In this document: positions 10,437 to 25,479 of the stretch, piece by piece
Layout of the letters: each line of letters starts with the position of its first letter
Position numbering within the stretch: the stretch's first letter is position 1
Assembly: GCA_040756295.1 (NCBI GenBank)
Contig: JBFLZN010000002.1
Location: 640,102-704,101, forward strand
DNA: 64,000 nt
Direction: 5' to 3'
From: Pseudomonadota bacterium
Lineage (GTDB): Bacteria; Pseudomonadota; Alphaproteobacteria; Rhizobiales; Beijerinckiaceae
Program-made: the position numbers and the translations under genes
Notes under the pieces: generated by a model
The model's input: the letters and a program-made list of their open reading frames with translations, nothing else
The model's database searches: none
What the model was told of the DNA's origin: nothing

Positions 10437-10583
10437 CAAAGCCGGAAAAAAGCCATGGCCGCGGCCTAAAGGTTACGACGGGTTCGGCCGGCGCCAGCGC
10501 CGATACAATAATGTTTACGCAAAAATAAATTGCATTATACGATGGCGGCCGCGGGGAAACGGTGTTTGCCGGAGAGCGGATTT

Positions 10584-12419
10584 ATGGCTGCGGCGGTGTT
10601 CATCACGCATTCCTCCCGCGACTATAAGCAATCGCGTGCCGTCGTCGACGTCCTCGAAAAGAACGGCCTCTCTTGCTGGATCTCCGAACGCGACATCGGG
10701 GCTGGCGACAATTATGGCGATGCGATCGTCGATGCGATCGAGAGCGCCAAAGTCATGGTGCTGGTTTTCTCCGCCAACGCCAATAATTCCGATGAGATCA
10801 AGAAGGAGATTGCGCTCGCGAGTCAGCGCAAGCTGACCGTCGTGCCGATCCGCATCGAGGATGCGACGCCGAGCAAGGCTTTCCGCTACGAATTGGTCAC
10901 GCGCAACTGGATCGATTGCTTCCCGGATTGGAACCAGGGCATGCAGACGCTGGTGCGCCGGGTTTCATCGATCATTGGCGATGCCAAACCGCTCGACGAC
11001 CTGCCGCAGCCAGTGCCGGTTCCCAAACCGCGGATCGAGCCGGCCTGGATTGCCGCGGCTGCGGCCGGCATCGTAGTCATTGCCGGCGGCGCCGCCTATA
11101 GTCTGCGGCCGCAGCCCGCACCCGTCACCATCACCCATAACGACGACAACGGCCAGATTGTCCCCGCCGCCTCGCGGCCGCAACAGGTTGCCGATGCCAC
11201 GGGGAACAAGCCGGCGGCGGGCAACGATGCCGCGACGGGCGACCATCCGGCCGCCGCGCCAAGCCCCGCCGCCGAAGTTCCGGCGCCGAAACCCACACCC
11301 ATCGCGCAGGCCGCCGCGCCAAAACCGGTCTCCATCGCGGAAGCCGACGCGCCGAGACCCGCCCCCGACACACAGGCGGAGGCGCCGAAACCCGCGCCGG
11401 ACACGCAGGCCGCGGCATCGCAGCCGACGCCTGTTGCCCAAGTGATCACACCCAAACCCGCGCCCATCGAACAAACCGCCGCGCCCAAACCGGCGCTCGC
11501 GCCGGCTATACCGAAGAAAACCCAGATCGCCGCGCTTGGCCCGGTCGTGCCGGTTCAGACGATTGCCCCGCCCGTTAAGCCCCTCCCAAGCAAGCCCGCG
11601 GCGCCGGCGATTTCGGACAAGCCGCCGGCGTATAATGCCGCGACGCCGGGCGGGCAGATCTTTCGCGAGTGCAAAGATTGTCCGCAGATGGTGGTGGTGC
11701 CGCGCGGCACGGCGATTTTGGGCTCGCCCGCGGGGGAGCCCGGCCGGCAGTCGAACGAAGCCGCGCCGCATAGCGTGACGATCGACAAGCCCTTTGCCGT
11801 CGGCCGTTATGCCGTGACGTTCGACGATTGGGCGGCCTGCGTCGCCGGTGGCGGCTGCAATGGCTATAAGCCCGACGACAACGGCTTTGGCCGCGGCAGG
11901 CGGCCAGTCATCTTCGTTTCGTGGAATGATGCCAATGCCTATGTCAATTGGCTCAAACACAAGACCGGGCAGCCCTATCGCTTGCTGAGCGAATCGGAAT
12001 GGGAATATGCAGCGCGCGGCTGCACCAAAGCCGATTGTCCCGATACACCGTTCTGGTTCGGCGACATTGCGCCCGATCTCGCAAACTATGATTCGCGCTA
12101 TTCCTATGAAGGCAGCCCGAAGGCGGACCACGAGGTCGCGACGGTGCCCGTCGATCAAGGCAAGCCCAATCCGTTCGGGCTCACCAATATGCTGGGCAAT
12201 GTCCAGCAATGGGTCGACGATTGCTGGAACGCCGATTTGAGCGCGCCGTCCGACGGCAGCGCCCTGCTCACCGGCGATTGCGGCGACCGGGTGATTCGTG
12301 GCGGCTCCTATTCCGACAAGCCGGACGCTCTGCGCGCTTCGGCACGCGCCTGGGACGCCGCGGATGATAGGGAATCACCCAATATTGGTATCCGCGTCGG
12401 ACGTACGCTTGCGCCGTGA
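10584..12419 (+). CDS. TIR domain - TM - Pro/Ala linker - FGE-sulfatase (SUMF1/C-lectin fold) protein
   Basis: GGAGAG RBS; N-term VFITHSSRD...CWISERDI..GD.Y...I.DAIE...FSANANNSDEIKKE (TIR); TM IAAAAAGIVVIAGGAAY; C-term FRECKDCPQMVVVP, LLSESEWEYAAR, NPFGL.NM.GNV.QW, RVIRGGS, IGIRV. Confidence 0.88.
   Translation: MAAAVFITHSSRDYKQSRAVVDVLEKNGLSCWISERDIGAGDNYGDAIVDAIESAKVMVLVFSANANNSDEIKKEIALASQRKLTVVPIRIEDATPSKAFRYELVTRNWIDCFPDWNQGMQTLVRRVSSIIGDAKPLDDLPQPVPVPKPRIEPAWIAAAAAGIVVIAGGAAYSLRPQPAPVTITHNDDNGQIVPAASRPQQVADATGNKPAAGNDAATGDHPAAAPSPAAEVPAPKPTPIAQAAAPKPVSIAEADAPRPAPDTQAEAPKPAPDTQAAASQPTPVAQVITPKPAPIEQTAAPKPALAPAIPKKTQIAALGPVVPVQTIAPPVKPLPSKPAAPAISDKPPAYNAATPGGQIFRECKDCPQMVVVPRGTAILGSPAGEPGRQSNEAAPHSVTIDKPFAVGRYAVTFDDWAACVAGGGCNGYKPDDNGFGRGRRPVIFVSWNDANAYVNWLKHKTGQPYRLLSESEWEYAARGCTKADCPDTPFWFGDIAPDLANYDSRYSYEGSPKADHEVATVPVDQGKPNPFGLTNMLGNVQQWVDDCWNADLSAPSDGSALLTGDCGDRVIRGGSYSDKPDALRASARAWDAADDRESPNIGIRVGRTLAP
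11349..11411 (+). repeat. Imperfect 33-nt tandem duplication (APxPAPDTQA) in TIR-FGE linker
   Basis: GCGCCGAGACCCGCCCCCGACACACAGGCG and GCGCCGAAACCCGCGCCGGACACGCAGGCC, 33 nt apart and in frame. Confidence 0.75.
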
Positions 12420-12467: not shown

Positions 12468-15191
12468 GTGATGTTGCAATTGCGAATGGGCCAGGCCGTC
12501 GGTGCGCTGGTGTTTTTGGGACTGATGAGTTTTGGCATGCTCGCTTCGGCGAGCAATGCGCAGGCCGAAACGCGCCGCGCCTTCATTCTCGGCATCCAAC
12601 GCTACACCGATGCCAATATCCAGAGCCTGACGCGGTCCAACGCCGATGCAGAGGATCTTGCCGGCGACCTGCAGGATCTCGGCTTCGACAAGAAGAACAT
12701 CACATTGGCCACCGATCTGCGGACGAAGGAGGATTTCGACAAGAAGTTCCAGGCCTTCCTCAAGACGATCGAAGAGGGTGATGACGTCTTCTTCTTCTTC
12801 TCCGGCCACGGCCTGGGGGTCGAGGCGACCGGCACGAATTACCTGCTGCTCGGCAATCTTAAGAGCCTCAAGACCTATACCCGCGCGCAATTGCTCGATT
12901 CCGACCGGCGCGACGACATTATCGCGCTGAAAATGCCGTCCTACGAAGGCCAATACGAAACCGATGAAATTCCGAAGGACGGGGTTTCGGCGTCGGACGT
13001 CATCCAGCAGATCGCCCAGAAGAAGCCCAAGGTCGCCTTCATCGTCCTCGACGCCTGCCGTTCGCTGCCGCCGGCAACGACCGACATCCGCACCTTGAAG
13101 CGCAGCGACACCTCCGGCAGCCGCCTGCTGCCGGATACGGACCTGCCGAACGGTTTCCTGGTGCTTTACTCGGCGTCCTTCGGCGAAACGGCGGTCGAGA
13201 GCTTTGGACCCACCGACAAACGCCGGAACTCCTTGTTCACCGAGGTGCTGCGCCAGGAGATGCAGCGGCCCGGCCAGACCCTGCCGCAATTGGCCGACCG
13301 CGCCAGGCTCGTCGTGCGGGCCTATGCGGCGAAAAACGGCTTCCAGCAGGACCCGGAAAATTTCAACAATCTTGCGACCGCCGGCGATTTCACCTTGGTC
13401 GGCTCGGTCGGTGCCGAGCGTTTCACTCTTTCGCAACAACAATGCGAGGGCGCGCAAGAGGATTGGGAGCAGGTCAGCCAGCGCCCGACGCGCGAGACGC
13501 TGGAACGCCACCGGCGCCGGTTTCGCGATTGCCCGACGGCCGAGCTCGCCCGCCGTGCGCTGGTCAATCTGATCAGCTCGCCGGAAGATACGACGACGAT
13601 CGCCATGCCGCTCAATCGCAATATCGACGATTGCGACCGGCTCGCCGCGGCGGACATCGACACGGCGCGTCCGCCGGAAGTGCCCGGCCTGCCGCTCGGC
13701 AAGATCGATTTCGACGCCGCTATCCCGGCTTGCCAGAAATCGATCGCGCATAACCCGCGGATTGCGCGCTTCCTTTATAATTACGGGCGCGCCGAGGAAG
13801 CCGCAGCGAACTCGATGCGGCCGGACGATCCGGCGCGGCAGGAGAAGCTGCTCGCCGCGCATGCGGCGTTCAAGGACGCCGCCGACCGGGGCTATGTCGC
13901 GGCGCTCTACAGCCTCGCGACACTCTATGATTACACCGAATCCGCGGATCTCGATCAGGACTTGGCCAACAAGGATCTGATCAAGGCGGCGAACCAGGAT
14001 TTCCCCGCCGCAATGTATGAGCTTGGCCTTCGCTATAAGAAGGGCCTGTTCGGCATCCAGGCGGATTTCGCGCAAGCCTATGATTGGATGGCCAAGGCGG
14101 CCGAGGCGGGGTCGGTCGCCGCGATGGTCGATGTCGCCGAGTCGCTTTGGTACGGCCAGGGCGTCAGCCCCAATCCGCGCCGCGCCGTCGAATGGGCGGA
14201 GCGCGCTGCCGACGCCGGTTCCGTCGATGCCAAGGTCGATCTCGGGGTCTTCTATTTCTGGGGCTACAAGATCGTGAACGACAATGGCGACGTCGACGAT
14301 GCCAAAAGCGTCCTGTCCGACGATTCGCTGGCGCTGCTATGGTTCGGGCGTGCGGCGCAGGCCAATAATGCCCAGGCGCAATATTATCTCGCGATCATGA
14401 TGGAGGCGGGCGACGGCCTGCCCATCGCCCAGGCGGAAATCGCGGCGCGCTATTACCGGCTCGCCGCCCATGGCGGCTACGAGGATGCGGAGATCGATCT
14501 TGCCGAGCGGCTGCGCTCGGGCCGGATTCTGGTCAATCCGGAGAATGGCGAGAACGAAGCCGTCGACCTCTTGTCGCGCGCGCTCAGCCAGGGCTCCGCC
14601 CGCGCAGCCTCCTATCTCGCTGAAATCTATCGCAACGGCGAATTTGGCCGGCCGAAGGATCCGCTGAAGGCCATGCAATACGCCTATCAGGCGATCAAGC
14701 TTTCGGTCGAGGCCGATCCGACGACGGAAGACGGCGATCCCTTCTTCGAGATCGATGCCGGCATCCTGCTCGCGGAAATGGCCGTGAACGGCGAGGCCAA
14801 CGATATCAACGGCCATTCCCTGCTGAACCCGGACGAAATCGACCGGCTGCAGAAGTTCTATGGCACAGTCAATCCGGATGTCCGCAAGGTCGAGGTCCGC
14901 AAGCTGGAAGTCCCGCTTGGCTGCAACGGCTATTACAGCCGCCACGGGACGCTCTGGGTCTGGGATTGGGGCCGCAAGGAATCGCCGACGGAGCCGCAGT
15001 TCCGTAGCATCGAGCGCCAGACCGGCTGTTACGACAACGAGACGCTCCGGCGCACGCTGATCGCGAGCTTCCTGGTGGCGCGGAAAACCAAGGTTCCTTT
15101 CGCCGATCTGATCTATCAGCAGATCAAGGAGGCGCGGGAGACGGTCGACAATAGTCAGTCGGCCTCGCCCCGGCGTCACCATCGCTATTGA
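12468..15191 (+). CDS. Exported caspase-like protease (peptidase C14) with Sel1-like repeats
   Basis: Signal peptide (..ASNAQA); RRAFILGIQRY, FFFSGHG (His), VLDACRS (Cys); repeated A...LG..Y..G.G helical Sel1 units; exact start uncertain (GTG 12468/ATG 12471). Confidence 0.9.
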   Translation: MMLQLRMGQAVGALVFLGLMSFGMLASASNAQAETRRAFILGIQRYTDANIQSLTRSNADAEDLAGDLQDLGFDKKNITLATDLRTKEDFDKKFQAFLKTIEEGDDVFFFFSGHGLGVEATGTNYLLLGNLKSLKTYTRAQLLDSDRRDDIIALKMPSYEGQYETDEIPKDGVSASDVIQQIAQKKPKVAFIVLDACRSLPPATTDIRTLKRSDTSGSRLLPDTDLPNGFLVLYSASFGETAVESFGPTDKRRNSLFTEVLRQEMQRPGQTLPQLADRARLVVRAYAAKNGFQQDPENFNNLATAGDFTLVGSVGAERFTLSQQQCEGAQEDWEQVSQRPTRETLERHRRRFRDCPTAELARRALVNLISSPEDTTTIAMPLNRNIDDCDRLAAADIDTARPPEVPGLPLGKIDFDAAIPACQKSIAHNPRIARFLYNYGRAEEAAANSMRPDDPARQEKLLAAHAAFKDAADRGYVAALYSLATLYDYTESADLDQDLANKDLIKAANQDFPAAMYELGLRYKKGLFGIQADFAQAYDWMAKAAEAGSVAAMVDVAESLWYGQGVSPNPRRAVEWAERAADAGSVDAKVDLGVFYFWGYKIVNDNGDVDDAKSVLSDDSLALLWFGRAAQANNAQAQYYLAIMMEAGDGLPIAQAEIAARYYRLAAHGGYEDAEIDLAERLRSGRILVNPENGENEAVDLLSRALSQGSARAASYLAEIYRNGEFGRPKDPLKAMQYAYQAIKLSVEADPTTEDGDPFFEIDAGILLAEMAVNGEANDINGHSLLNPDEIDRLQKFYGTVNPDVRKVEVRKLEVPLGCNGYYSRHGTLWVWDWGRKESPTEPQFRSIERQTGCYDNETLRRTLIASFLVARKTKVPFADLIYQQIKEARETVDNSQSASPRRHHRY

Positions 15192-15271
15192 GGGCGACGC
15201 TGCGGTTGAAGGTATGCACGGCACGGTATAAAACCCTTACGGATTATACTTGCGCGGTTAGGGAGAGTTCC

Positions 15272-16459
15272 ATGGCTGCACGGCGAGCAAATCTTTTGAG
15301 AACATCCAGCCTTGTTGCTGCGTGTACATTTGCGTTGAGCATTTTTGCCGCTGCTGCGCCGACACCGGCGCAGGCGCAGTTCGGCTCCTTCTTCCGTCAT
15401 TTTTTTGGCGGCGGCGGCGGCGGTGGGCACCACCGCTCCCACCACTATGTGCGGCGGCATCGCCCCTCAGGTGGCGGCGAAAATAATAATGATGAGGAGG
15501 ATGATTCGTCTTCATCGGCGCCGTCGGATGCGGATTCGACGCGCGAACTCGCCAAGCTGGCGCCGCCGGCGCGCGAGCAGCTTGCGCTGCTCAAAAACGT
15601 CAACGCCAGCGATTCACTCGGCGCGGTCGGATCGTCGGACGATCAGGACAGTTCCAATTCGGCCAGCAACGAGGCCGATCGCGATTACACCACCATGGTC
15701 GATCAGCTCATTCAGACGCTGAAATCGCGGCTTGGCGATTCCGATCGTGAAGGGGATGTGACCGAGACCGCGGTCATGGATGCGCTCACGGAAGCGATCC
15801 TGCAGGCCAAGCTCGAACGATTCGAGACCTTCATCGGCGAGAACTGGTCGGCCGAGCGCTTGCGCGGCATGATCATCAAGCGCGTCACCGACGAGCTCGG
15901 CGGCCTGTTCGAGGGCAACAATCGCGGCGCGGTCTCGATGGCCGACCTCAGCATGATGATCAAAAAAGCGGCGCGCGAGGTTTATTCCCGCCTGTTCGAG
16001 ACGTCGGAACTGCTCGCCTCGAACCGCAGCGCCACGCTTTTCGTGCAGCGGCTCTATCAGTCGCGCGGCGATCTCGTGAAGGGCGATGTCCGCGAGGATA
16101 CGGAGGAACTGCTGCTGAAGGCGTCCTCGGAGGGGATTGCGCATTTCCGCGACCAGTTCAACCGCGCCGACCATCCCTATACGCTGATCTACCGGGCGCA
16201 GCGGATCATCTTCGATTGCCTTTCCGACAGCGTCGAATCGATCACGGAATCCGGCGCCGGGATGGCCTCGACGGCGGAGATCGAGAAGCGCCTTGTCGAC
16301 AAAGATCAGAAGCAATGCACGAAATGGGTCTCAAACCAGATGATCGGACCTGACGGCGGCCTGAAGAAGCAGGAGCCGATGCCGCTGCGCGTCATCTGGA
16401 CCTCGGGCGGCCCGCAGGAAGACCCGAGCATGTACGGGCACGCGTCGGATCAAAGCTGA
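15272..16459 (+). CDS. Exported hypothetical protein with Gly/His-rich and acidic low-complexity N-region
   Basis: GGGAGAG RBS; signal peptide ending AQA; GGGGGGHHRSHH and NNNDEEDDSSSS tracts; helical remainder. Confidence 0.75.
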   Translation: MAARRANLLRTSSLVAACTFALSIFAAAAPTPAQAQFGSFFRHFFGGGGGGGHHRSHHYVRRHRPSGGGENNNDEEDDSSSSAPSDADSTRELAKLAPPAREQLALLKNVNASDSLGAVGSSDDQDSSNSASNEADRDYTTMVDQLIQTLKSRLGDSDREGDVTETAVMDALTEAILQAKLERFETFIGENWSAERLRGMIIKRVTDELGGLFEGNNRGAVSMADLSMMIKKAAREVYSRLFETSELLASNRSATLFVQRLYQSRGDLVKGDVREDTEELLLKASSEGIAHFRDQFNRADHPYTLIYRAQRIIFDCLSDSVESITESGAGMASTAEIEKRLVDKDQKQCTKWVSNQMIGPDGGLKKQEPMPLRVIWTSGGPQEDPSMYGHASDQS

Positions 16460-16494: not shown

Positions 16495-17811
16495 CTATCG
16501 CCCGACGGAGATCGACGGCGTCAGCGGCTGCCGCGTCTCGGGTACGGCCTGGATGGTCACAATCTCGTTCAGCAGAGCGAAATTGGCTTTCGAGACGAGA
16601 TCGTCATTGTCGATCCAATACCAGATGCCGCGTTTATTGACCGAGACATAGGCATTTTCCGGCGCCTCGGGGCTTTGTTCCACGATGATGAAGGCGCGGT
16701 GCGTGTCGCGCCAGATCGCCCGGGTGCGGATATCCTGATCGATCCGCGGGAAGAGCGCGTCGGAGAGATACGTGTTCCACATCAGGTTCACTTCATCCTG
16801 CACGAGATGCGGCGGATTGAAGTAGAACATATTCGCATTGACCCGGCAGGGCGCCGCATTGTTCAGCGCGCGGATTTCTGCCGCCTCTTCCGGCGCGGCG
16901 AAATGGATCGCATCGACCTCGCCCTCCTTTAACGCGCCGATGGCGGAGCGGGTGGTGAAGAAGAAATTCGGCGATGCCGCGCCGCGCAGCGTGATCACAT
17001 TCGCTGACGATTCCGGATAAAGCTGCCGCAGCCCGTTCCAAAGCTTGGCGACCGTGACTTCCGGCGCCGGCGCCTGATCCATGAAGGGACAAGCGGGCCC
17101 AGCGATGCCGCGGCTCGGATGCAGGGCTTCGTTGTGCAGGATGACGTTCAAATTTTGCTTTGACGCATCGTCGCTGGCGCCGCGCGCCGGCGGGTCCTCG
17201 GCCTTTGAGCGGCCGTGCCCGCGCCCGCCGGGCATGTCCTCGAGGCCCGCCGCAAGCACGATCGCGCCGAATTGGTCGAGCAGCACCATGCGATCCTGCG
17301 CGACGAAATTGTCCATATAGCCCGGCGCCAGACGGTCGACCGAGAATTCGAGAACATTGGCGAGGCCGAAATCGGAATTGAACATGCGCACGATCGATTC
17401 CGGTGCGATCGGCGAGGAGACCTGCTGGATCAGCGGATAGCCCTGCACCGGGGCGTAGCGGACGAGCGCGGAATCGCCATAGGTGAACGTGCCGGAGACC
17501 GCGCCGACTTGGCCGGCAATCGTTCCAGCGCTGGTCGAATGCAAGCCCGGCTGCGCGCCGAGGCCGGAAAGGCCGCCGTTGACGCCGGTGTTGAACGACA
17601 CCGTCGCATCGGCTTCAGAAACATCGATGAAATTGGGCGTCTCGTAATTCTTCGCCCTGACGATATTCAGCAATAATTGTTCGGACGACGTATCGTGAAT
17701 GACTTCATTATAAAATGTGCGGCTTGCCGTGATCGAAGGCGGTCCGGTCAAGGAGCCGCAGCCCGACATGAGGCTTACGCCGGCCAGCGCAATCCAGCCG
17801 AATTTCCGCAT
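16495..17811 (-). CDS. Putative lipoprotein, unknown function
   Basis: MRK + hydrophobic core + lipobox-like MSG-C; YNEVI...SEQLLLNIVRA...P.FIDV segment. Confidence 0.75.
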   Translation of the reverse strand: MRKFGWIALAGVSLMSGCGSLTGPPSITASRTFYNEVIHDTSSEQLLLNIVRAKNYETPNFIDVSEADATVSFNTGVNGGLSGLGAQPGLHSTSAGTIAGQVGAVSGTFTYGDSALVRYAPVQGYPLIQQVSSPIAPESIVRMFNSDFGLANVLEFSVDRLAPGYMDNFVAQDRMVLLDQFGAIVLAAGLEDMPGGRGHGRSKAEDPPARGASDDASKQNLNVILHNEALHPSRGIAGPACPFMDQAPAPEVTVAKLWNGLRQLYPESSANVITLRGAASPNFFFTTRSAIGALKEGEVDAIHFAAPEEAAEIRALNNAAPCRVNANMFYFNPPHLVQDEVNLMWNTYLSDALFPRIDQDIRTRAIWRDTHRAFIIVEQSPEAPENAYVSVNKRGIWYWIDNDDLVSKANFALLNEIVTIQAVPETRQPLTPSISVGR

Positions 17812-17920: not shown

Positions 17921-18010
17921 CGGCACGACTTGCGGCACGACTTGGCCGTGTCTTTGGCAGGGCGCGGCTTGACCCGTCTTGTTTGCCGGTTCGGCGCGTG
18001 GCACAACTTG
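17921..18010. promoter_or_regulatory. Three copies of GGCAC(G/A)ACTTG in divergent promoter region
   Basis: Perfect 12-bp tandem CGGCACGACTTG x2 (17921-17944) and GGCACAACTTG (18000-18010). Confidence 0.5.
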
Positions 18011-18076: not shown

Positions 18077-20059
18077 ATGCCGCTTTCACCTGAACCCGAT
18101 CACCAGGCCAATGCCGGCGCCAAGCCGCGGCTGGCGTTTCGCGTCGGCGTCACCGGCACGCAGGCTTTGCCCCCCGGCCGGCTCGTCGATCTCACCGCTA
18201 AGGTGAGAGCCGTGCTGCAGCACATTCACAGCGAGATCGCCGCGCTCGCCGATCATCCGGCGCTTGCGCAATATTATGCACGCGAAGGCAGTGCTTTGCA
18301 GCCGCCGCTTTTGCGGATCATCTCGCCGCTCGCGCGCGGCGCCGACCGGCTGGTCGCCAAGGAAGCGCTCGCGCTCGGCTATGCGCTGAATGTGCCGATG
18401 CCGTTTTCGCGCGACGAATATGAGCGCGATTTCAAACCGCCGAATGCGCCGCCGACGGCCGTGTCGGAAAACCTTGAAGAGTTTCGCGCGCTTTTCGCGC
18501 GCGCCGGCGACAATTGGATCGCGCTTGACGGTGACCGCGAAACAGCCGACGCCGCCTATGAGGCGGCCGGCGAATTCGTCGTGCGCAACAGCGATATTGT
18601 CATCGCCATCTGGGATGGCGGCCAGGGAAACGGGCGTGGCGGCACGCGGGATATCGTGCATTTTGCTGCGAAGGCCGGTGTTCCTGTCTGGTGGATCCAC
18701 GCGACGCAAGCCGTCGAGCCGCAATGGATCGCCGACATCCAGGACTTACGCGATCCGGTGATTGGGCCGAAGCCGCGAGACAAGCTCGACGCCTATCTGC
18801 GCCAGCAGATCCGGCCGCCGAAGCCGGTCTTGCGGGAACGCCATTCCTGGCTGTCTGCTTTGGCGTTCCCGCCCGCTGCGGCCGACGATCCCGCCGGCGA
18901 TTATTTCGCCGAGGCGCCGCTGCCGTCCTACGGCGTGTGGAAGCTTTACAGCCGTATGATGCTCTTTGCGTCGGGCTGCAAGCCGCCCTGGACGCCGCCG
19001 GTGAAGCCGCAGAACGAGCCCGGCGCCTACTGGTTTCAATTTTACGCGCCGGCCGATGCGCGCGCCGGCGAATATGCGACGCGCTATCGGTCGAGCTATG
19101 TCTGGGTTTTCCTGCTCGCGACCTGCTCGCTGTTGTTCGGTGCGCTCGCCAGCATGTTCCACGGCCGCGAGGTCGTGCTTTTCTCGATCCTCGGATTTGG
19201 CGTGACCGGCCGCGTCGCTGTTATCGTTTTCGCGATGGCCGAGCTCGTCGCCCTCGTCGCCATATTGACAATCGCGCTCATGGCCTTGCGCGACGACTGG
19301 CATGTGCGTTCGATCGAATATCGTCTGCTTGCCGAGCTTTGCCGCAAGCAACAGGTGCTGGCGCCGCTGGGGCGGGCGCTGTCTTTCGGTGCGGTCCAGC
19401 AGCTCGCGACGCTGATGCGGGACGGCGAGGCGGGTTCCCCGGCGCCGGGGCATGCTAGTCCGTCGGAGCTTGCGGCGGAGGGCGACCGGTCCGGCTGGGT
19501 CAGCTGGCTGTTCATGGCCTATCAGCGCGCCGCCTTGATGCCGCGCGGCACGATCGCCCATCTCTTCTTGCTCGGTGTCCGCAATCAAGACGTGTTGCAC
19601 GATCTTGTCGAAGAGCAGCTCGAATATCATAGTGGCCGCGCCAAAATGGCCGGCGGCGCGGCGAAGTTTTTTGAACATAACGGCGAGCGCATTTTCGGCA
19701 TCGTCCTCTTTTGCGTGTTCTTCAAAATCATCTTGACCTTGCTCGCGAGCTCGCCGCTGACGCCGCTCGACGATTGGGTGACGGCGACCCTCGGTCTTCT
19801 CGGCGTGATCCTGCCAGCTCTGTCCGCTGCGGCGGTCGGCATCGGCAGCTATGCGGAATGGCAGCTTCTGGCCGAGGAATCGAACCACATGCTCGAACTC
19901 TTGAAACTGGCGAAGCAGCGGATCGACCGCATCAATCTGAAGCGTCCGCTGGCCTCGCAGGATTTGGGCGCCGAGGCCGATGCCGTCGCCTCGCTGATGC
20001 TGCAGGATTTGGAAGGCTGGCAACGGCTGTTCCGCGTGAAAATCATCGAGACGCAATGA
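18077..20059 (+). CDS. SLOG (YspA/DprA/LOG-like) domain fused to two SLATT/DUF4231-like transmembrane modules
   Basis: FRVGVTG, SPLARGADRLVA, DIVIAIWDG....GGTRDIV (SLOG); AD..A..YA..YR + TM pair + W....IEYRLLAELCR; second EQLEYH + TM pair + LPALSAA, LM..DL..WQ.LF. Confidence 0.75.
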   Translation: MPLSPEPDHQANAGAKPRLAFRVGVTGTQALPPGRLVDLTAKVRAVLQHIHSEIAALADHPALAQYYAREGSALQPPLLRIISPLARGADRLVAKEALALGYALNVPMPFSRDEYERDFKPPNAPPTAVSENLEEFRALFARAGDNWIALDGDRETADAAYEAAGEFVVRNSDIVIAIWDGGQGNGRGGTRDIVHFAAKAGVPVWWIHATQAVEPQWIADIQDLRDPVIGPKPRDKLDAYLRQQIRPPKPVLRERHSWLSALAFPPAAADDPAGDYFAEAPLPSYGVWKLYSRMMLFASGCKPPWTPPVKPQNEPGAYWFQFYAPADARAGEYATRYRSSYVWVFLLATCSLLFGALASMFHGREVVLFSILGFGVTGRVAVIVFAMAELVALVAILTIALMALRDDWHVRSIEYRLLAELCRKQQVLAPLGRALSFGAVQQLATLMRDGEAGSPAPGHASPSELAAEGDRSGWVSWLFMAYQRAALMPRGTIAHLFLLGVRNQDVLHDLVEEQLEYHSGRAKMAGGAAKFFEHNGERIFGIVLFCVFFKIILTLLASSPLTPLDDWVTATLGLLGVILPALSAAAVGIGSYAEWQLLAEESNHMLELLKLAKQRIDRINLKRPLASQDLGAEADAVASLMLQDLEGWQRLFRVKIIETQ

Positions 20060-21927
20060 CCGGCGAAGCTCCTCCTCACGATGTCGGGGCGGCGCTTGAT
20101 CAAGTCTTTGCCGATCTTGCGGCCAATCGGCCGGAGGCCGGGATCGCCGCGCAATTGCGCAGCCTCGAAGCCTCCTGCCAGGCGCCGCTGCCGATCCGTG
20201 CGCGTTATCTGAATGCCCGCGGCCTGGTGATGAACCGCATGGGCCAGCGCAGCGAGGCGCTCGGCGACCTGCTCGAATCCGCCGCGCTCTACGCGCAAAT
20301 CGGCGACGCGGCGGGCGCCGCGCAAATTCTGCGGGCCATTGCGCTTGTCCATGCCTGGCGCAGCGATGCGCGCGAATCCGCGTTGGCACTTCTGCGTGCG
20401 ATCAGCGAGGCGAGCGACGACCGCGTCAATGTCGCTCTGTCGCTGTTCGAGGCTGGCCGGCTCGAAGTCGAGATCGGACGGCCGCGCGATGCCTATCGCT
20501 TTTTCGAACGCGGGCTTGCGATCGGTGCCGAGGCGCCGCCGCCGCTTGAGCGCGACCGCGCCCGGATCGGCGCCTTGCAGGCGCTTGTCGCGGCGCGCGA
20601 CATTGCCGCCGCGCAAGCCGCTGCGGCGGATTTGAATCTCGATCGTCTTGCGACACCGCGGCTGCAACATCTGGCGCGGATCGAGCGCGCGCGGATTGCT
20701 TTGGCGCAAAGCGATTTCGCCGTGGCGGACTCGATCCTCGCGGAGATCCGCGCCGGCCTGCCGGCAGACCCGGAAAAATTCGAACATGCCGAATATGCCC
20801 ACGCCGAAGCGGAATCGCTCTTCGCGCGCAAATCGTATCCCGACGCGCTGAAGACGATCGGCGCGGTCATCGCCCGTTATGCCGACGACAATCTGCCGGG
20901 GCGCGAGATCAGCGCCCGCTTGCTGGAAAGCCAGATTTTCGATGCGCTCGACCGTGCCGAGGAGGCTGATCGCACTTTGGCAGCGGCGTTACGGCGGGCG
21001 GTCGCGGCCAATCTGCCGGGCCATGCCGATACGGTGCGCGAGCGGCTTGCGGCGCGCGGCCGCTCGCAGAATGTTTGGGCGCCGGGACTGTCTTTGGCCT
21101 CATCCAATCTGAGTTCCGCCGATCGTTTCGTCCGCCGCAAGCCGCTTGGGGCCGGCGGCTTCGGTTCGGTCAGCCGTGCCTATGATCTCGAACTCGGCAC
21201 CGAGGTCGCGCTGAAGAACCTCCGTTTGAAGGCGATCTACGACAGCGCCGTGCTCACGGAACGGCGTCGCGCCGCGGAGATGGAAGTCGCCGCCGCCTCG
21301 CGCATCCAGCATCCGGGCGTCGGGCGCGTCTATGGATTGCTCGATGAGCCCGACGGCGATGCGCTGCTCGCCCGCGAACTCGTCGAAGGCCCGACCTTGC
21401 GCGAGGCGATGCAAACCAAGCTGCATCTTGCCGAGAAGATCGGCCTCATGGCGCAATTGGCGCATTGCCTGGCGGCGATCCACGCGGCGGGGATCGTCCA
21501 TCGCGATTTGAAGCCGGAGAATGTCGTGCTGCGCGACGGCGTCTCGCCGGTCATCATCGATTTCGGCATCAGCGCCATCGGCCATGTCTGGCAGAGCAAG
21601 GATGCGCCGAAGACGCTGAATTATGCGGCGCCGGAACAGACGAAAGCCGGCTGGGCGGACGCGCGCAGCGACATTTATGCGATGGGCGTCATCGCCTATG
21701 AGATTTTGCGAGGGTGCCTGCCGCCGCCCGCGCCCATGGGCCTCGCGTCGGTCTTTGATGGCCGCGGCAAAACCATCGACGGCGATTTGCGCGCGGCCGG
21801 CGCTCCCGCCGCCGTTGCGGGCCTCGTCGCGCAGATGCTGGCGGCATCGCCACGCCGGCGGCCGCAGGCGGCGCGCGACATTGCGCTGGCGCTGCAGACG
21901 GCGCTCGCCGACATCCGGACGGCTTGA
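20056..21927 (+). CDS. Hanks-type Ser/Thr kinase with N-terminal TPR-like helical domain
   Basis: LGAGGFGSV, VALK, HRDLKPEN, DFG, YAAPE, SDIYAMG; ATGA start/stop overlap with upstream gene. Confidence 0.9.
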   Translation: MTGEAPPHDVGAALDQVFADLAANRPEAGIAAQLRSLEASCQAPLPIRARYLNARGLVMNRMGQRSEALGDLLESAALYAQIGDAAGAAQILRAIALVHAWRSDARESALALLRAISEASDDRVNVALSLFEAGRLEVEIGRPRDAYRFFERGLAIGAEAPPPLERDRARIGALQALVAARDIAAAQAAAADLNLDRLATPRLQHLARIERARIALAQSDFAVADSILAEIRAGLPADPEKFEHAEYAHAEAESLFARKSYPDALKTIGAVIARYADDNLPGREISARLLESQIFDALDRAEEADRTLAAALRRAVAANLPGHADTVRERLAARGRSQNVWAPGLSLASSNLSSADRFVRRKPLGAGGFGSVSRAYDLELGTEVALKNLRLKAIYDSAVLTERRRAAEMEVAAASRIQHPGVGRVYGLLDEPDGDALLARELVEGPTLREAMQTKLHLAEKIGLMAQLAHCLAAIHAAGIVHRDLKPENVVLRDGVSPVIIDFGISAIGHVWQSKDAPKTLNYAAPEQTKAGWADARSDIYAMGVIAYEILRGCLPPPAPMGLASVFDGRGKTIDGDLRAAGAPAAVAGLVAQMLAASPRRRPQAARDIALALQTALADIRTA

Positions 21928-22003
21928 ATGCTCTATCGCGCCCGCCGCCGATTTTGCTAGAACGTGACCATTGCTGAGGCAGAACGGCATCGGGAGCCGA
22001 CGC

Positions 22004-23725
22004 TTGCTGACGATCAAGCATATCGATGGGCCGCTGGCCGGTCAGGAGCAGACGATCTCCGACGATCTCGGCCAGGTCACCATCGGTCGCGATCCCGACC
22101 GCTGCCAGATCGTCTATCCGCCGGAGAGCACGATCGTCGGGCGCGTGCATTGCGCGTTGCTGCATCAGCCTTCCGGCGATTGGGCGATTGAGACTTACGG
22201 CGATCATTATGTCGACGTTGACGGCGAGCCGGTCGAGGCGCGCCATGCGCTTTCCAGCGGCGCCAAAATCCGTCTCGGCCGCCGCGACGGACCAAGTTTT
22301 ACAGCGAGCGTCGCACGCGATGCGGCGAGCTCCGATCTCGGTGTCACCGGGGCTCAGCAAAAGCAGGTTTCGGTGCGCCACCTCATCCGCCGCGACGTGC
22401 GGATCGCGATGGGCGTGGTCGCTTTGGCGATCGTCGCCGGTCTTGGCACACTGTTTTACAACAAGGTGCAGAGCGACCGGATTCGCCAGCGGCTCGACCG
22501 TTCGGCCTTCCTTGTCGAAATCCGGCACCGGCCCGATGGCTGTCCGGATTGGGACGCGACCGCCTGGCCGGTCGGCCGCGATCTGCTTGTCACCAATGCG
22601 CATGTCGTCGACGAGGCGGGCAGCGGCACGATGCTGGTGCGCGCGCCCGGACCCGACGGCAAGGAATATGAAGTCATCGGTAGCGCCCTGCATCCGGGTT
22701 ACAAGGCTTTCACCGACTTCGTCCGCAAGCAGGATCTCGTCAAATGGGATGCCGGCCAGATCGAGACGCCGCCCACCGGCCTTGCCTATGATGTCGCGCT
22801 GTTGCGGGTCAAAGGGCCCTTGCCGGAGGATTCGATCCTGCCGCTCGCCGCCCGCAGCGATGTCGAATCCTTGTGGAAGGGGATGCAGATCGAGAGCGAG
22901 GGTTATCCCAGCCAGAATGTTGCTGGCGCAAGCGTGCTGGGTTGCGGCGCGACGCCGAAATACCGCGCCGGGGTGATCGAAAGCCTGACCGATTATTTCT
23001 CCTCGGCGCAGCAGGACCCGAAGGAAACGCTGCTCGTGACGCATAATATCCCGATCACCTGCGGGGCCAGCGGCAGCCCGGTCATCGGCGAGGATGGCAA
23101 AGTCGTTGCCGTCGTCAGCGCCTTCAGTTCGACCGGCGGCCAATGCACACCGAGCGCGGTGCTGATCAATTACGCGCAGCGCGCGGATATTGTCGCCGAT
23201 TTGATCGATGGCCGCGCCGAGGATGCGCTCAATCGCGATCGGCACTATTGGCTATCGCAATTGGCGATGCTGCATGCCGCGGGTTACGAGCCGGGCAACA
23301 AAATCTATATTCCGCTGATCCTGCGAGCCGACAAGGCGAGCGCGGGCGTGGATGCCCATGCCGAACCGGCGCTCGATCTTCGCGCGCCGGGAGTTCTCGC
23401 GGCAGATGCCAAGTTAGGCGCTAACTCCGGAGCGGCAACCGCAGTGACGCCGCTGACGCTCACCGCCGGCCAGCATTATGTGCTCGTCGCTTATGCGGAA
23501 GATGAGACGCCGATTGCGCTGACCTTGCGCGGCAAGAACGGCACCGCCGTCGCCTTCACCGATCCGCTGTCCGCAAACAGCGTCTGGTATCCGTCGCTGA
23601 CTTTTGCGCCGGCGGCCAATGGCCAATATCAGGCGACTGTCAGCGGCGCGACCGCAGGGATCAAATATATCCTGCGGCTTTATCGCTGGACGATACCCGC
23701 CCCGTCAGCCGAAACGCACCGATAG
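22004..23725 (+). CDS. FHA domain - TM - trypsin-like serine protease - C-terminal beta-sandwich (PPC-like)
   Basis: VTIGRDP..C...VGRVHC (FHA-like); TM IAMGVVALAIVAGLGTLFY; triad TNAHVV / YDVALL / CGASGSPV; GGGAG RBS before TTG 22004 (ORF open from 21971). Confidence 0.8.
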   Translation: MLTIKHIDGPLAGQEQTISDDLGQVTIGRDPDRCQIVYPPESTIVGRVHCALLHQPSGDWAIETYGDHYVDVDGEPVEARHALSSGAKIRLGRRDGPSFTASVARDAASSDLGVTGAQQKQVSVRHLIRRDVRIAMGVVALAIVAGLGTLFYNKVQSDRIRQRLDRSAFLVEIRHRPDGCPDWDATAWPVGRDLLVTNAHVVDEAGSGTMLVRAPGPDGKEYEVIGSALHPGYKAFTDFVRKQDLVKWDAGQIETPPTGLAYDVALLRVKGPLPEDSILPLAARSDVESLWKGMQIESEGYPSQNVAGASVLGCGATPKYRAGVIESLTDYFSSAQQDPKETLLVTHNIPITCGASGSPVIGEDGKVVAVVSAFSSTGGQCTPSAVLINYAQRADIVADLIDGRAEDALNRDRHYWLSQLAMLHAAGYEPGNKIYIPLILRADKASAGVDAHAEPALDLRAPGVLAADAKLGANSGAATAVTPLTLTAGQHYVLVAYAEDETPIALTLRGKNGTAVAFTDPLSANSVWYPSLTFAPAANGQYQATVSGATAGIKYILRLYRWTIPAPSAETHR

Positions 23726-24001: not shown

Positions 24002-24222
24002 GAAAATCATCCAACAATCTGGTTTGTACTTGCCCTTTAGCTGGCATTCGCCCCGACCCCCGTCAAGGCTGTGGCCAGCAAGAAAAAACTGTGGCCGTCG
24101 CGCAGCAAAGATGCGACGCGATCCCTGGGGCGATGCCAAATTGCCCCGCCGCAGGTGACGCACTCTCGTCTTACTTTGTCTGTTACGTCGCGCCGGTTTC
24201 ACTGAGCCTCGCAGGAGTTTCA

Positions 24223-25479
24223 ATGCGATTCCTTCCATATGCACTCACCACATTGCTTTTGTCGGCGCCGGCGTTTGATGTCGCCCGGGCACAATCAACC
24301 GATTGCGGCGTCACCGGTATCAGCGCGGAAGAGGCGCCGCCGCCCTTGCCGGACTACGACCAGCCGCCGGTTCCAGGGCCGGGCTATGTTTGGACGCCGG
24401 GTTATTGGGCTTGGAACAATGTTGATTACTATTGGGTGCCGGGCACGTGGGCCGAACCGCCGCAATCCGATCTCTTATGGACGCCGCCCTATTGGGGCTT
24501 TGCCGATGGCGCCTATGTCTTTCATCGCGGGTATTGGGGCCAGCATGTCGGCTTCTATGGCGGCGTCCCCTATGGCTACGGCTATACGGGCGACGGCTTC
24601 GAAGGGGGGCGCTGGGACCACGGCGCCTTTTACTACAACCGCTCGGTGACAAATCTGAACGGCGTGCAGATCACCAACGTCTATGACAAGACCGTCATCA
24701 TCAATAACAATACCCGTGTCAGCTATAACGGCGGAAGCGGCGGGCTGACGGTGCGGCCGACGCCGGCAGATGAGGCCTTCGCGCGCGAACCGCATGTGCC
24801 GCCGACGCGCCTGCAAACCGAGCATTTGCGTGCGGCGAGCGTGAACGGCTCCGGCTTTGCGTCGTCAAATCACGGCCGCCCCGCAGTCGCGGCGACGGCG
24901 CGGCCCGGCGAGTTCACTGGGCCGGGCGCGACACCCGCGCGTGCCGGCGAACGGCCGGACCATGGCGCCGGCGCGCCGGGCCAGACGCCGCCCGTGGGAA
25001 CGGAAAGACCGGCGGCCACACCGCCGGTGACGCCCGAACACGGTGAAGCGGCCGGGCGGCGCCCGGAGGCGCATGGCGGCGCGGCTGGCGTTCCGGCCAA
25101 CCCGAACCCTGCCGCGACGCCGGGCGAGAACCGGCGGCTGCACGAACAGGCGCCGGGCGCGATGGAGGGTGGCCCGGCGATGATGCGCATGAACGCAAAT
25201 CCGCACGCGCGGCCCGCGACACCCGAGCGGCCCGAGGCCCGCAAGCCGCCGGAGCGGCCGAATGCGCCTCCCGCAGGGGCCATGGCGCATCCCGGCTTCA
25301 GTGGCGGGCCCGCGATGCACGCTCCGGCGCATGCCGCGCCGGCCATGCACGAGGCGCCTCATGGCGCCCCGGCCATGCGTGAAGCGCCTCATGAAGCGCC
25401 TCATGGCGCGCCGGCGATGCATGCGCCACATCCGCCGCGCCCCGAGGGCGGCGGCCATCGCCCCGACGACAAGCGGTAA
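24223..25479 (+). CDS. YXWGXW repeat-containing exported protein
   Basis: AGGAG RBS; signal peptide; APPPLPDYDQPP.PG.GYVWTPGYWAW, YYWVPGTW, WTPPYWG, GYWG repeats; Pro/Ala/His-rich tail. Confidence 0.88.
   Translation: MRFLPYALTTLLLSAPAFDVARAQSTDCGVTGISAEEAPPPLPDYDQPPVPGPGYVWTPGYWAWNNVDYYWVPGTWAEPPQSDLLWTPPYWGFADGAYVFHRGYWGQHVGFYGGVPYGYGYTGDGFEGGRWDHGAFYYNRSVTNLNGVQITNVYDKTVIINNNTRVSYNGGSGGLTVRPTPADEAFAREPHVPPTRLQTEHLRAASVNGSGFASSNHGRPAVAATARPGEFTGPGATPARAGERPDHGAGAPGQTPPVGTERPAATPPVTPEHGEAAGRRPEAHGGAAGVPANPNPAATPGENRRLHEQAPGAMEGGPAMMRMNANPHARPATPERPEARKPPERPNAPPAGAMAHPGFSGGPAMHAPAHAAPAMHEAPHGAPAMREAPHEAPHGAPAMHAPHPPRPEGGGHRPDDKR

Follow-up and report, generated by a model that had tools for sequence, protein, structure and literature searches.

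A family of SLOG-fold proteins with paired SLATT-like membrane modules as candidate Thoeris-like effectors linked to TIR genes

The described systems that come closest to the locus reported here are found among the Thoeris systems. An effector class named 'SLOG and 4TM' (also '4TM SLOG') was recently predicted for Thoeris, with a signal made by TIR as its expected trigger (Tables S1 and S2 in Yirmiya et al., bioRxiv 10.64898/2025.12.03.692087, December 2025), and the logic of a SLOG-membrane effector is therefore already present as a prediction in the literature. Two 'SLOG and 4TM' operons, from Streptomyces sp. GKU 895 and Ca. Nitrospira nitrosa, were cloned and gave no defence in E. coli, while for TIR combined with SLATT the same study verified a type VII Thoeris whose signal is canonical cADPR (bioRxiv 10.64898/2025.12.03.692087). 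As for the single domains, SLATT is considered a predicted membrane effector regulated by ADPr-derivatives, and the SLOG clades comprise enzymes as well as sensors, the YpsA-like clade being described as including cADPR sensors (PMC9503650).

The window, i.e. the whole stretch of 64,000 nucleotides that was analysed, contains an ORF whose product, hereafter P0001, combines a SLOG-fold head with two SLATT-like membrane modules (Table 1). With a confidence only a little better than even, we read P0001 as an inner-membrane effector in which the SLOG domain would receive an ADPR-type signal made by a TIR protein and the SLATT pair would breach or depolarize the membrane, following the logic of Thoeris. 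The gene starts with an ATG codon, has a GAGG sequence just 5' of it and is present as a single copy in its own genome. In the full-length structural model (pLDDT 82, pTM 0.83), a linker of 80 residues lies between the 230-residue SLOG domain and the membrane part. No model in Pfam, NCBIfam or PADLOC matched P0001 at threshold; the family, having no model in these collections, is consequently missed by current defence-system finders. Scanning of the locus for promoters and terminators gave nothing above shuffled expectation, and a TGGCAC motif upstream of the gene was discarded as a sigma-54 promoter because its spacing is wrong.

Table 1. Features of the P0001 locus, with positions in the window
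Feature	Position	Strand	Basis
TIR - single TM - Pro/Ala linker - FGE-sulfatase (C-type-lectin fold), candidate signal generator	10530..12419	+	Pfam
Caspase (Peptidase_C14)-Sel1-DUF2610, exported, directly 3' of the TIR gene	12468..15191	+	Pfam
423-aa protein, start overlapping the stop codon of the caspase gene	15188..16459	+	No Pfam/NCBIfam match
Lipoprotein, divergent from the P0001 operon	16495..17811	-	No family match
P0001, SLOG-linker-2x(2TM SLATT-like) protein	18077..20059	+	Open ORF and translation, 660 aa
P0001, predicted SLOG-fold domain, N-terminal, YpsA/DprA-like, cytoplasmic (residues 10-232)	18104..18772	+	Model, Foldseek, Gly-rich motifs
P0001, 2TM module 1, SLATT_3/DUF4231-like (residues about 312-455; TM 342-360, 381-399)	19010..19441	+	hhalign, weak DUF4231, TM helices
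P0001, 2TM module 2, SLATT_1-like (residues about 470-660; TM 539-557, 572-590)	19484..20056	+	hhalign, NCBIfam SLATT_1, PF18181
TPR-like repeats and Hanks Ser/Thr kinase	20056..21927	+	Pfam Pkinase, E 6e-33
FHA - TM - trypsin-like protease	21971..23725	+	Pfam FHA, Trypsin_2

Membership in the SLOG superfamily was understood as a Rossmann-like alpha/beta fold in three layers, in which Gly-rich loops follow strand 1 and precede the last helix; LOG, DprA, YpsA and the MoCo carrier protein share this fold, as does the N-terminal domain of TRPM. The first-pass annotation of this DNA had recognized SLOG-type motifs (GVTG, SPLARGAD and WDG..GGT) at the N-terminus. They are indeed there, as RVGVTG (residues 22-27), SPLARGADR (residues 83-91) and WDGGQGNGRGGT (residues 179-190), and their core residues (G24, T26, G27, S83-P84-L85-A86, G88, D90, W179, G181 and G188-G189-T190) are invariant in an alignment of 36 family sequences. 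The GxTG and GRGGT loops are kept across the family, in which the GGT motif is followed by an acidic residue (cf. LOG enzymes). The SPLA-x-G-x-D arrangement may also resemble the SG-x-A-x-G-x-D of DprA. A structural model of the N-domain was obtained with a pLDDT of 91.7, and the Foldseek search, set as a check of the fold, agreed with it: 18 of the top 18 PDB matches belong to the SLOG superfamily (probability 0.99-1.0). The best of them is YpsA from B. subtilis (2nx2; E 7.7e-6, probability 1.0), and DprA, ShosA, TM1055 and the MoCo carrier protein come next; TRPM N-terminal domains are also among the matches, at low rank. On the basis of the predicted structure, the SLOG fold of the N-domain can be considered confirmed.

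Sequence profiles did not detect this relationship. The Pfam SLOG families YpsA, YAcAr, DNA_processg_A, Lysine_decarbox, LSDAT, TPALS and STALD and the LD clusters gave nothing at E <= 10 with P0001 or its N-domain, and only sub-threshold matches with 48 N-domains of the family, the best being YAcAr (E 0.12) and DNA_processg_A (E 0.21); likewise, PDB sequences searched with a family-wide profile and with one for the N-domain gave no match. It should be noted that the best structural matches, YpsA (2nx2) and DprA (4ljk, 5mll, 3uqz), with E from 7.7e-6 to 1e-3 and TM-score 0.46-0.64, share only 15-17% sequence identity with the N-domain. They are soluble proteins devoid of a membrane module, with roles in cell division or in DNA uptake and RecA loading. 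No ThsA chain was found among the top 50 PDB matches of the model, which, together with the closeness to YpsA and DprA, bears out the earlier caveat that this SLOG looks 'YspA-like'.

The structural proximity to YpsA and DprA, instead of to the gcADPR-binding ThsA, is one of the points in favour of a different reading, according to which the SLOG domain would sense or process a nucleotide not made by any TIR (NAD+ or ADPR levels, a modified base or nucleotide, or the product of another synthase), or would itself be a membrane-anchored enzyme of the LOG or DrHyd type. The acidic residue after GGT, reminiscent of LOG enzymes, the occurrence of enzymes beside sensors in SLOG clades (PMC9503650) and weak matches to Nuc_deoxyrib_tr in two of the 48 N-domains (E 0.009) point in the same direction. 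We nevertheless consider this reading quite unlikely in view of the genomic evidence presented below.

The membrane part of P0001 contains four transmembrane helices, and the 2TM topology of SLATT is found in it twice. As SLATT we considered a 2TM hairpin flanked by conserved helices and belonging to PF18181, PF18183, PF18184, PF18186, PF18160 or PF14015. DUF4231 matched P0001 below threshold (E 0.09, residues 334-424), as did the SLATT_1 model of NCBIfam (NF033634; E 0.04, residues 551-650), while PF18181 matched three of 36 family members (best E 0.0013) and one homologue, P0095, bears the SLATT name in UniRef. In addition, a bona fide tandem family (SLATT_3+SLATT_1) could be aligned collinearly with the C-terminal half of the P0001 family along 264 columns (hhalign E 8.3e-5, probability 61%), a result reached only with a 96-sequence alignment, the probability being 3.5% with the 36-sequence one. 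Module 1 corresponds to positions 22-136 of the tandem family (hhalign E 1.2e-4) and module 2 to positions 178-308 (hhalign E 1.5e-3), the order of the modules being identical in the two families. In Tistrella (L068), the tandem family abuts a ThsB-like TIR gene. Two residues located inside the membrane helices of P0001, E389 in TM2 and K550 in TM3, are invariant in the 36-sequence alignment. The first-pass annotation had proposed two SLATT/DUF4231-like transmembrane modules; the four helices and their division into two modules stood, and the homology to SLATT is supported only moderately by the profile comparisons. The two modules showed no significant similarity to each other by hhalign with either alignment, so that 'SLATT-SLATT' cannot be regarded as the outcome of a recent duplication.

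The P0001 family comprises 5,583 clusters at 50% identity (E <= 1e-3) and at least 534 full-length homologues, its members coming mostly from soil Alphaproteobacteria and Acidobacteriota. The co-occurrence of SLOG-SLATT and TIR genes, which had been set as a check, was clearly observed. Of 67 genome loci, 26 had a TIR ORF no more than 10 kb from the P0001 homologue, and 19 had one no more than 2 kb away. The flanks of the homologues contained 32 TIR ORFs in 1.05 Mb, compared with 187 in 231 Mb genome-wide for 50 of the same genomes, corresponding to an enrichment of about 38-fold. In a separate metagenome sample, a TIR gene was found at most 8 kb away on five of eight contigs. All the TIR neighbours (32 of 32) retain the Glu at the catalytic position. 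Two tight arrangements come from metagenomes: in L073, the SLOG-SLATT gene is followed by a TIR-TPR gene after a gap of 3 nt, in a two-gene cassette located amid housekeeping genes, and in L074 a TIR gene precedes the SLOG-SLATT gene with a gap of 37 nt, the two distances being 4 and 38 nt when counted from stop end to start.

TIR genes lie next to family members in all major clades of the tree. Beyond the TIR domain itself the partners are diverse, with at least 13 non-TIR architectures, and their types include TIR-FGE, TIR-TPR, TIR-NACHT-TPR, SIR2-TIR and TIR plus unknown. The spread over all clades and the variety of partners argue for a repeated association and not for a single inherited accident. 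TIR-STAND proteins are found among the partners together with SIR2-TIR, and both types are usually read as NAD-depleting effectors, not as signal makers. The 100 immediate neighbours of the family are mixed (patatin 9, RyR 7, TIR 6, TrkA_N 5, kinase 4), so that some of the TIR signal could be due to the location of the genes in conflict islands; PADLOC recognized only patatin-type effectors (9 of 100) and kinases (4 of 100) among these neighbours.

About 60% of the loci have no TIR gene within 10 kb, and this would suit a SLOG domain devoted to a non-TIR ligand. However, TIR genes that could act from elsewhere are present in 44 of 50 host genomes, and such a SLOG domain could hardly account for the 38-fold enrichment and the tight two-gene cassettes. 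Moreover, the recurrent neighbours of the family include neither a cyclase nor SMODS nor any other signal synthase.

The TIR protein that the first-pass annotation had placed about 6 kb upstream of P0001 was readily recognized (TIR_2, E 5e-21, residues 23-142), and its gene ends 5.66 kb before the start of P0001. It also contains an FGE-sulfatase domain (E 3e-45, residues 384-623), a single transmembrane helix at about residue 175-193 of the stop-to-stop frame beginning at 10512, and the catalytic-position Glu. TIR-FGE genes are close to P0001 homologues in four further loci, namely L028, L038 (157 nt away), L045 and L046, and thereby recur in several clades other than that of P0001. In the window, the TIR gene belongs to a separate plus-strand operon (TIR-FGE, caspase-Sel1 and the 423-aa protein), and the minus-strand lipoprotein gene stands between this operon and P0001. 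Six further TIR_2 matches were found in the same genome. The caspase-Sel1 and 423-aa genes are kept as neighbours only in L001 and L002; they were not retained as partners at the family level, nor is a type IV (caspase) Thoeris reading of P0001 favoured. Homologues of the lipoprotein gene are near P0001 homologues in L001, L002, L003, L005 and L029.

On its 3' side, P0001 is translationally coupled with the kinase gene, whose start overlaps the P0001 stop by 4 nt (ATGA); the FHA-trypsin gene is separated from the end of the kinase gene by 43 nt. The kinase is directly 3' of P0001 homologues in L001, L002, L004, L006 and L033, and nearby in L005, L015, L053 and L072, while trypsin-domain homologues are near P0001 homologues in eight loci plus L072. 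An exopolysaccharide cluster is located downstream in the window.

This operon structure raises the question whether P0001 might be controlled mainly by phospho-signalling through the TPR-Ser/Thr kinase and the FHA-TM-trypsin protein, the TIR proteins being co-residents of an island of conflict or envelope-signalling genes. Besides the close coupling of the three genes, such a view could draw on three of the five loci with the kinase directly 3', which have no TIR within 10 kb, and on L005, L015 and L072, where the kinase and trypsin genes are reshuffled but present. However, the kinase is near 8 of the 67 loci and FHA or trypsin near 7-8, in one part of the tree, whereas TIR is found at 26 of 67 and in all clades, and the strongly conserved SLOG motifs, of the nucleotide-pocket type, would be left unexplained. 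We regard control by the kinase as an unlikely main explanation. In addition, it is compatible with the TIR reading, kinase and TIR being both present in L072, L005 and L015. The co-transcribed TPR-kinase and FHA-TM-trypsin proteins are probably a regulatory or second-output layer in the clade of P0001.

Finally, P0001 could be a housekeeping membrane protein acting on the envelope or on cell division in the manner of YpsA, its neighbourhood being coincidental and having nothing to do with conflict or signalling. The best structural match, YpsA, regulates cell division in Bacillus (cited in PMC9503650), only housekeeping genes flank the homologues in L075 and L078, and the exopolysaccharide cluster of the window could be seen in the same light. 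Against this stand the patchy distribution of the family and the discordance between its tree and taxonomy, with Acidobacteriota and Gammaproteobacteria nested among Alphaproteobacteria. The neighbourhoods vary, genes for TIR, STAND NTPase, patatin, TPR-S and RyR proteins being frequent in them, and the gene, single-copy and absent from most relatives, has the features of accessory conflict genes. A housekeeping function appears very improbable.

Under the preferred reading of P0001 as a TIR-gated effector, the sequence of events would be as follows. A TIR-domain protein, once its sensor part is triggered, would cleave NAD+ to give a signal derived from ADP-ribose, presumably of the cADPR type; the nearest candidate in the genome is the receptor-like TIR-TM-FGE protein upstream. 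The signal would then be bound by the SLOG domain of P0001, and on binding the SLATT helices would change in conformation or oligomeric state, possibly forming a pore, leading to membrane breach or depolarization and to growth arrest or death. A role of P0001 in phage defence would be consistent with this scheme. If the mechanism is true, bacteria can fuse a Thoeris-type SLOG sensor directly to a SLATT membrane effector, and a single effector type can pair with many TIR sensors, many of which are outward-facing membrane receptors.

A broader and more speculative scheme, to which we attach a low probability, is that SLOG-2xSLATT proteins are the shared receiver for single-pass membrane TIR proteins with the TIR domain inside and a variable ectodomain (FGE/C-type-lectin fold, TPR or other). 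An extracytoplasmic cue would be converted into a TIR nucleotide signal and then into gating of the membrane effector, in a trans-envelope pathway in the style of Toll-like receptors, with the kinase and the FHA-TM-protease as a phospho-dependent second layer in the P0001 clade. Such a pathway, if real, might extend beyond phage defence.

As the concept of a SLOG-membrane effector has been published, the value of the P0001 family is incremental, and consists in a documented candidate family and in specific constructs. In this respect, the cassettes of L073 and L074 are cleaner material than the pair of 'SLOG and 4TM' operons already cloned, neither of which was protective in E. coli.

Compared by description, since only IMG gene ids are given for it, the 'SLOG and 4TM' class shares its effector architecture with P0001 (a SLOG domain and four transmembrane helices, with a link to TIR). 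Its TIR gene is adjacent, whereas P0001 has a kinase as operon partner and its candidate TIR gene at a distance of 5.7 kb; at the level of the family, however, TIR adjacency is found. The TIR domains of the published examples showed only generic similarity to the TIR profile used here, and TIR sequences were therefore not used as a tie to the class. Because its relatives adjoin TIR enzymes far above chance, P0001 is probably a candidate member of this predicted Thoeris-like effector class.

A similar architecture and length are found in the LSDAT_prok-SLATT-SLATT protein (PF18171, PF14015/PF18184 and PF18181; 636 aa, L070:1276-3186, minus strand). Its SLOG domain belongs to a separate clade modelled in Pfam and related to the TRPM N-terminal domain, and no similarity to P0001 was detected by BLASTP or profile comparison, so that homology between the two proteins was not retained.

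Type VII Thoeris (ThsB TIR and SLATT ThsH) would have in common with P0001 the pairing of a TIR protein with a membrane effector of the SLATT type. ThsH is annotated with SLATT alone and was modelled as binding the signal between SLATT protomers; P0001 has the additional 230-residue SLOG domain and 80-residue linker, and falls below the Pfam thresholds for SLATT. ThsA of type I (SIR2-SLOG) and ThsD of type III (SLOG) resemble P0001 in that an ADPR derivative made by TIR is presumed to be received by a domain of the SLOG fold, but the output is a membrane module in P0001 and SIR2 in ThsA. On the preferred reading, P0001 would join a SLOG sensor in the style of types I and III and a SLATT effector in the style of type VII in a single polypeptide.

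The target gene is an uninterrupted ORF, preceded 5' of its ATG by GAGG and showing GC3-rich codon usage like that of the real genes of this 64% GC window; its product, P0001, has 660 amino acids. All three N-terminal motifs pointed out in the first-pass annotation are present (RVGVTG, residues 22-27; SPLARGADR, residues 83-91; WDGGQGNGRGGT, residues 179-190), and their core residues are invariant in an alignment of 36 full-length homologues (42-92% identity) and invariant or nearly so in a 96-sequence alignment (31-45% identity). The family is large and overlooked by current defence finders, with 5,583 clusters (50% identity) at E<=1e-3 and 517 at E<=1e-30. It includes at least 534 full-length matches, all unnamed or called 'hypothetical protein' except the Paracidobacterium homologue P0095, which UniRef names 'SMODS and SLOG-associating 2TM effector domain-containing protein'. 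None of the at least 534 full-length homologues listed carries a precomputed Pfam domain, and P0001 as a whole gave no Pfam or PADLOC match at E<=0.01. The nearest homologue, encoded at locus L001, shares 85% identity by tblastn and 86% over 638 columns of the tree alignment, and it points to a host that is probably a Methylovirgula or another member of Beijerinckiaceae. Within the 265 nt that precede the target gene, GGCACGACTTG occurs as a tandem duplication. This duplication is missing in L001 and in a further homologue locus, L002; a TGGCACAAC motif and the block CATTCACATGA...TTTGAGTCAATGG are kept in the window and in both loci. The motif spacing in the upstream region does not match that of a sigma-54 promoter.

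AlphaFold2 modelled the full-length protein with confidence (pLDDT 82, pTM 0.83), as an alpha/beta domain (residues 20-218), a helical linker and two helical-hairpin membrane modules. When the N-terminal domain was modelled alone (pLDDT 91.7), the top Foldseek match in the PDB was Bacillus subtilis YpsA (2nx2; E 7.7e-6, TM-score 0.52/0.64), followed by DprA from three species, ShosA, TM1055 and a MoCo carrier protein and, at low rank, by YgdH and the N-terminal regions of TRPM5 and TRPM2. All named matches belong to the SLOG superfamily, which bears out the proposed SLOG assignment. A scan of 48 N-domains up to E<=5 gave no family match to the Pfam SLOG families; the best Pfam E values were 0.12 for YAcAr, 0.21 for DNA_processg_A and 0.009 for Nuc_deoxyrib_tr. 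On the strength of the Foldseek order and these scans, the domain is a SLOG fold without a Pfam model, nearest to YpsA and DprA. ThsA was not among the top 50 PDB matches, so that the earlier caveat of a YspA-like SLOG was well founded. It could be argued that such a domain binds a ligand not made by TIR proteins, or that it is an enzyme; we consider this alternative improbable, ranking it after the kinase-centred one discussed below. The YpsA-like SLOG clade is described as including cADPR sensors (Iyer et al. 2022, PMC9503650).

The membrane half contains four transmembrane (TM) segments by hydropathy (residues 342-360, 381-399, 539-557 and 572-590). Relaxed family scans returned only two weak matches, one to DUF4231 (residues 334-424; E 0.09 for the piece scanned separately) and one to NCBIfam SLATT_1 (residues 551-650; E 0.04). 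The family was compared with a SLATT reference alignment composed of a Tistrella 'DUF4231 domain-containing protein' and its relatives, which bear PF18184, PF18181 and PF14015 and are thus tandem 4TM proteins themselves. The match was weak with the 36-sequence alignment and reached an hhalign E of 1.6e-4 with the 96-sequence alignment; for the C-terminal half, E was 8.3e-5 at a probability of 61% across 264 collinear columns. Taken singly, module 1 aligned with the SLATT_3 part (E 1.2e-4) and module 2 with the SLATT_1 part (E 1.5e-3). No similarity was detectable between modules 1 and 2. The two-module architecture put forward earlier stands, with four TM segments. A 'SLATT_3-like plus SLATT_1-like' make-up has moderate support, short of proof, from profile comparison, the direct matches being below threshold. 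In the 36-sequence alignment, Glu E389 within TM2 and Lys K550 within TM3 are invariant, and may represent the sort of buried charge that a gated or pore-lining helix would carry.

Features in the window (genes defined by gene calling and Pfam) and at other loci
Feature	Position	Strand	Basis or remark
TIR (residues 23-142), one TM, Pro/Ala linker, FGE-sulfatase	10530-12419	+	Pfam, gene calling
Caspase-Sel1-DUF2610	12468-15191	+	Pfam, gene calling
Protein without assigned domain	15188-16459	+	Gene calling
Lipoprotein	16495-17811	-	Gene calling
Tandem duplication of GGCACGACTTG	17921-17945, 17996-18010		Upstream of target gene
P0001 (target)	18077-20059	+	ORF
TPR-like repeats and Hanks kinase	20056-21927	+	Start overlaps target stop by 4 nt
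FHA-TM-trypsin	21971-23725	+	Pfam, gene calling
Pro/Ala-rich 462-aa protein with WXXGXW repeat	24091-25479		After FHA-trypsin gene; conservation limited to L001 and L002
607-aa SLOG-SLATT homologue followed by 536-aa TIR-TPR	L073:8001-11438		Two-gene cassette, 3-nt gap (4 nt stop end to start)
TIR, then SLOG-SLATT	L074		37-nt gap (38 nt stop end to start); adjoins patatin and another SLATT protein
Patatin-like phospholipase	L058:1985-3169		PADLOC CBASS-effector-type
RyR-domain protein, about 640 aa	L054:3070-5001	-	Also at L030, L037, L042, L045, L047, L049, L056, L060, L066
nSTAND1/TIR/YbjN/SLOG-SLATT module	L077:3962-9962		Also in one further metagenome context and at L003, L011, L015, L029
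ThsB-like TIR (164 aa) and tandem SLATT (298 aa)	L068:508-1899		TIR gene ends 1002, SLATT gene starts 1003
LSDAT_prok-DUF4231/SLATT_3-SLATT_1, 636 aa	L070:1276-3186	-	Adjoins DDE transposase fragment

In the window, a minus-strand gene lies between the TIR gene and the target, which are therefore in separate plus-strand transcription units; the direct operon partner of the target is the TPR-kinase gene. In the window's clade, the target shares its transcript with the kinase and the FHA-TM-protease, which may be either regulators of P0001 or a parallel output. A reading centred on the kinase is the main rival to a TIR relay. Kinase genes are found at 8 of 67 homologue loci, with trypsin at 8 and FHA at 7, and we regard this reading as unlikely, though the least so of the alternatives.

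Co-occurrence with TIR genes, proposed as a check in the first-pass annotation, is borne out across the family. In 67 loci with homologues from species-representative genomes, spanning Beijerinckiaceae, Acetobacteraceae, other Alphaproteobacteria, Acidobacteriaceae and a few Gammaproteobacteria, six-frame ORFs were searched with a TIR profile built up by iteration. At 26 loci the homologue has a TIR ORF no more than 10 kb away; the distance is at most 5 kb at 24 loci and at most 2 kb at 19. These counts are lower bounds because many contigs end early. The flanks contain 32 TIR ORFs in 1.05 Mb, about 30 per Mb, against 0.8 per Mb genome-wide (187 Pfam TIR_2 matches in 231 Mb from 50 of the sampled genomes), an approximately 38-fold enrichment; since flanks were counted with our own profile and genomes with Pfam, it should be read as more than 10-fold even if the profile is several times more sensitive. 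Nine of ten TIR ORFs checked against Pfam were TIR_2 (E 1e-7 to 1e-29), and the host genome has 7 TIR_2 matches. Among eight metagenome contexts with precomputed Pfam domains, five have a TIR gene within 8 kb. The family also supplies clean cassettes for testing; the two-gene cassette of L073, flanked by housekeeping (dehydrogenase) genes, would be a good construct. A RES-Xre toxin-antitoxin pair is located 1.6 kb upstream of it.

When 56 family members were placed in a maximum-likelihood tree, TIR adjacency turned up here and there in all major clades. The tree is discordant with taxonomy, in keeping with a mobile accessory gene, and the host genome (4.2 Mb, 99.8% complete) has a single copy; a housekeeping role for P0001 appears very improbable. 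Some taxon labels are probably binning errors: L057 and L066, MAGs of the same study labelled Methylocystis and Roseomonas, encode identical SLOG-SLATT proteins, and the 70% GC contig L034, labelled Bifidobacterium, is nested within Acetobacteraceae sequences.

Domain-level searches of the 67 loci also revealed nSTAND1 NTPases (19 loci, 12 of which also have a TIR gene when the locus lists are compared), patatin (14, within 10 kb), TPR-S/MAP3K_TRAF_bd (12), RyR-domain proteins (10), DUF4231 paralogues (6) and FGE (5). TIR is thus the commonest partner, though one among several. Among 100 immediate neighbours, the Pfam tally was patatin 9 (the commonest), RyR 7, TIR_2 6, TrkA_N 5, Pkinase 4 and YbjN 4, and PADLOC recognized only patatin-type effectors and kinases; the RyR-type neighbour also carries TrkA_N. 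On Beijerinckiaceae-type contigs, a recurrent module pairs nSTAND1(-rhodanese) with a TIR gene encoding roughly 520-545 aa, both divergent from a YbjN gene and the SLOG-SLATT gene that follows it, often with an ARPP-1 domain gene downstream. Variable neighbourhoods of this sort were described by Kaur et al. 2020 (PMC7159879), and this variability leaves room for an island effect behind the TIR linkage.

Sorted by what accompanies the TIR domain, the partners form at least 13 classes, including TIR-FGE (window, L001, L002, L028, L038, L045, L046), TIR-TPR, TIR-NACHT/NPHP3-TPR, SIR2-TIR and several types with no known domain besides TIR. The Glu at the catalytic position is kept in all 32 full TIR neighbours. 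Of 21 partners examined, at least 13 have a single TM after the TIR domain, which makes them resemble receptors whose C-terminal domain faces outward. In the window's own TIR protein, a predicted TM helix comes after TIR, then a long linker rich in Pro and Ala, and finally an FGE-sulfatase domain of C-type-lectin fold; this predicted topology is receptor-like and would place TIR inside. The most relevant point for the window itself is that TIR-FGE genes also stand beside homologues of other tree clades, at 157 nt in L038, 0.8 kb in L045 and 2 kb in L028 and L046. This frequent pairing with receptor-like membrane TIR proteins is the most interesting thread of the family.

The SLOG-SLATT-SLATT observation is confirmed, and computation, within its reach, supports the interpretation of P0001 as receiver of a TIR-made signal. 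Fold, TM topology, conservation of pocket-type motifs, TIR linkage, intact TIR catalytic residues and operon structure are what the analysis shows. A Thoeris-like relay is the best-supported mechanism: the TIR protein, set off through its sensor part, would cleave NAD+ to give an ADPR-derived signal, the cytoplasmic SLOG domain would bind it, and the tandem SLATT modules would switch state and compromise the membrane. Presumptive parts of such a relay are ligand binding, the nature of the ligand, assembly into oligomers or a pore, and the biological trigger.

The idea of a SLOG plus 4TM effector is already in the literature, and P0001 represents a new, unmodelled sequence family of a kind predicted there and experimentally unverified. 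SLATT was predicted to be a membrane effector regulated by ADPr derivatives, often beside TIR (Iyer et al. 2022). SLOG effectors belong to Thoeris types I and III; type VII, with a TIR protein, the SLATT effector ThsH and canonical cADPR as signal, has been verified; and 'SLOG and 4TM' or '4TM SLOG' is among 29 predicted effector types (Yirmiya et al., bioRxiv 10.64898/2025.12.03.692087, Dec 2025). In the same preprint, 'SLOG and 4TM' operons from Streptomyces sp. GKU 895 and Ca. Nitrospira nitrosa gave no defence in E. coli; P0001 was compared with these proteins by description, as only IMG ids are given. The LSDAT_prok-SLATT-SLATT protein of L070 has the architecture of P0001, but its SLOG is Pfam-modelled and of a different clade, and no sequence similarity to P0001 was detectable. 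At the Tistrella mobilis-like locus L068, a ThsB-like TIR gene (PF08937, E 6e-24) abuts a standalone tandem SLATT_3 and SLATT_1 gene with at least 1,898 homologues, an arrangement like type VII Thoeris, and it is this SLATT family that the C-terminal half of P0001 resembles.
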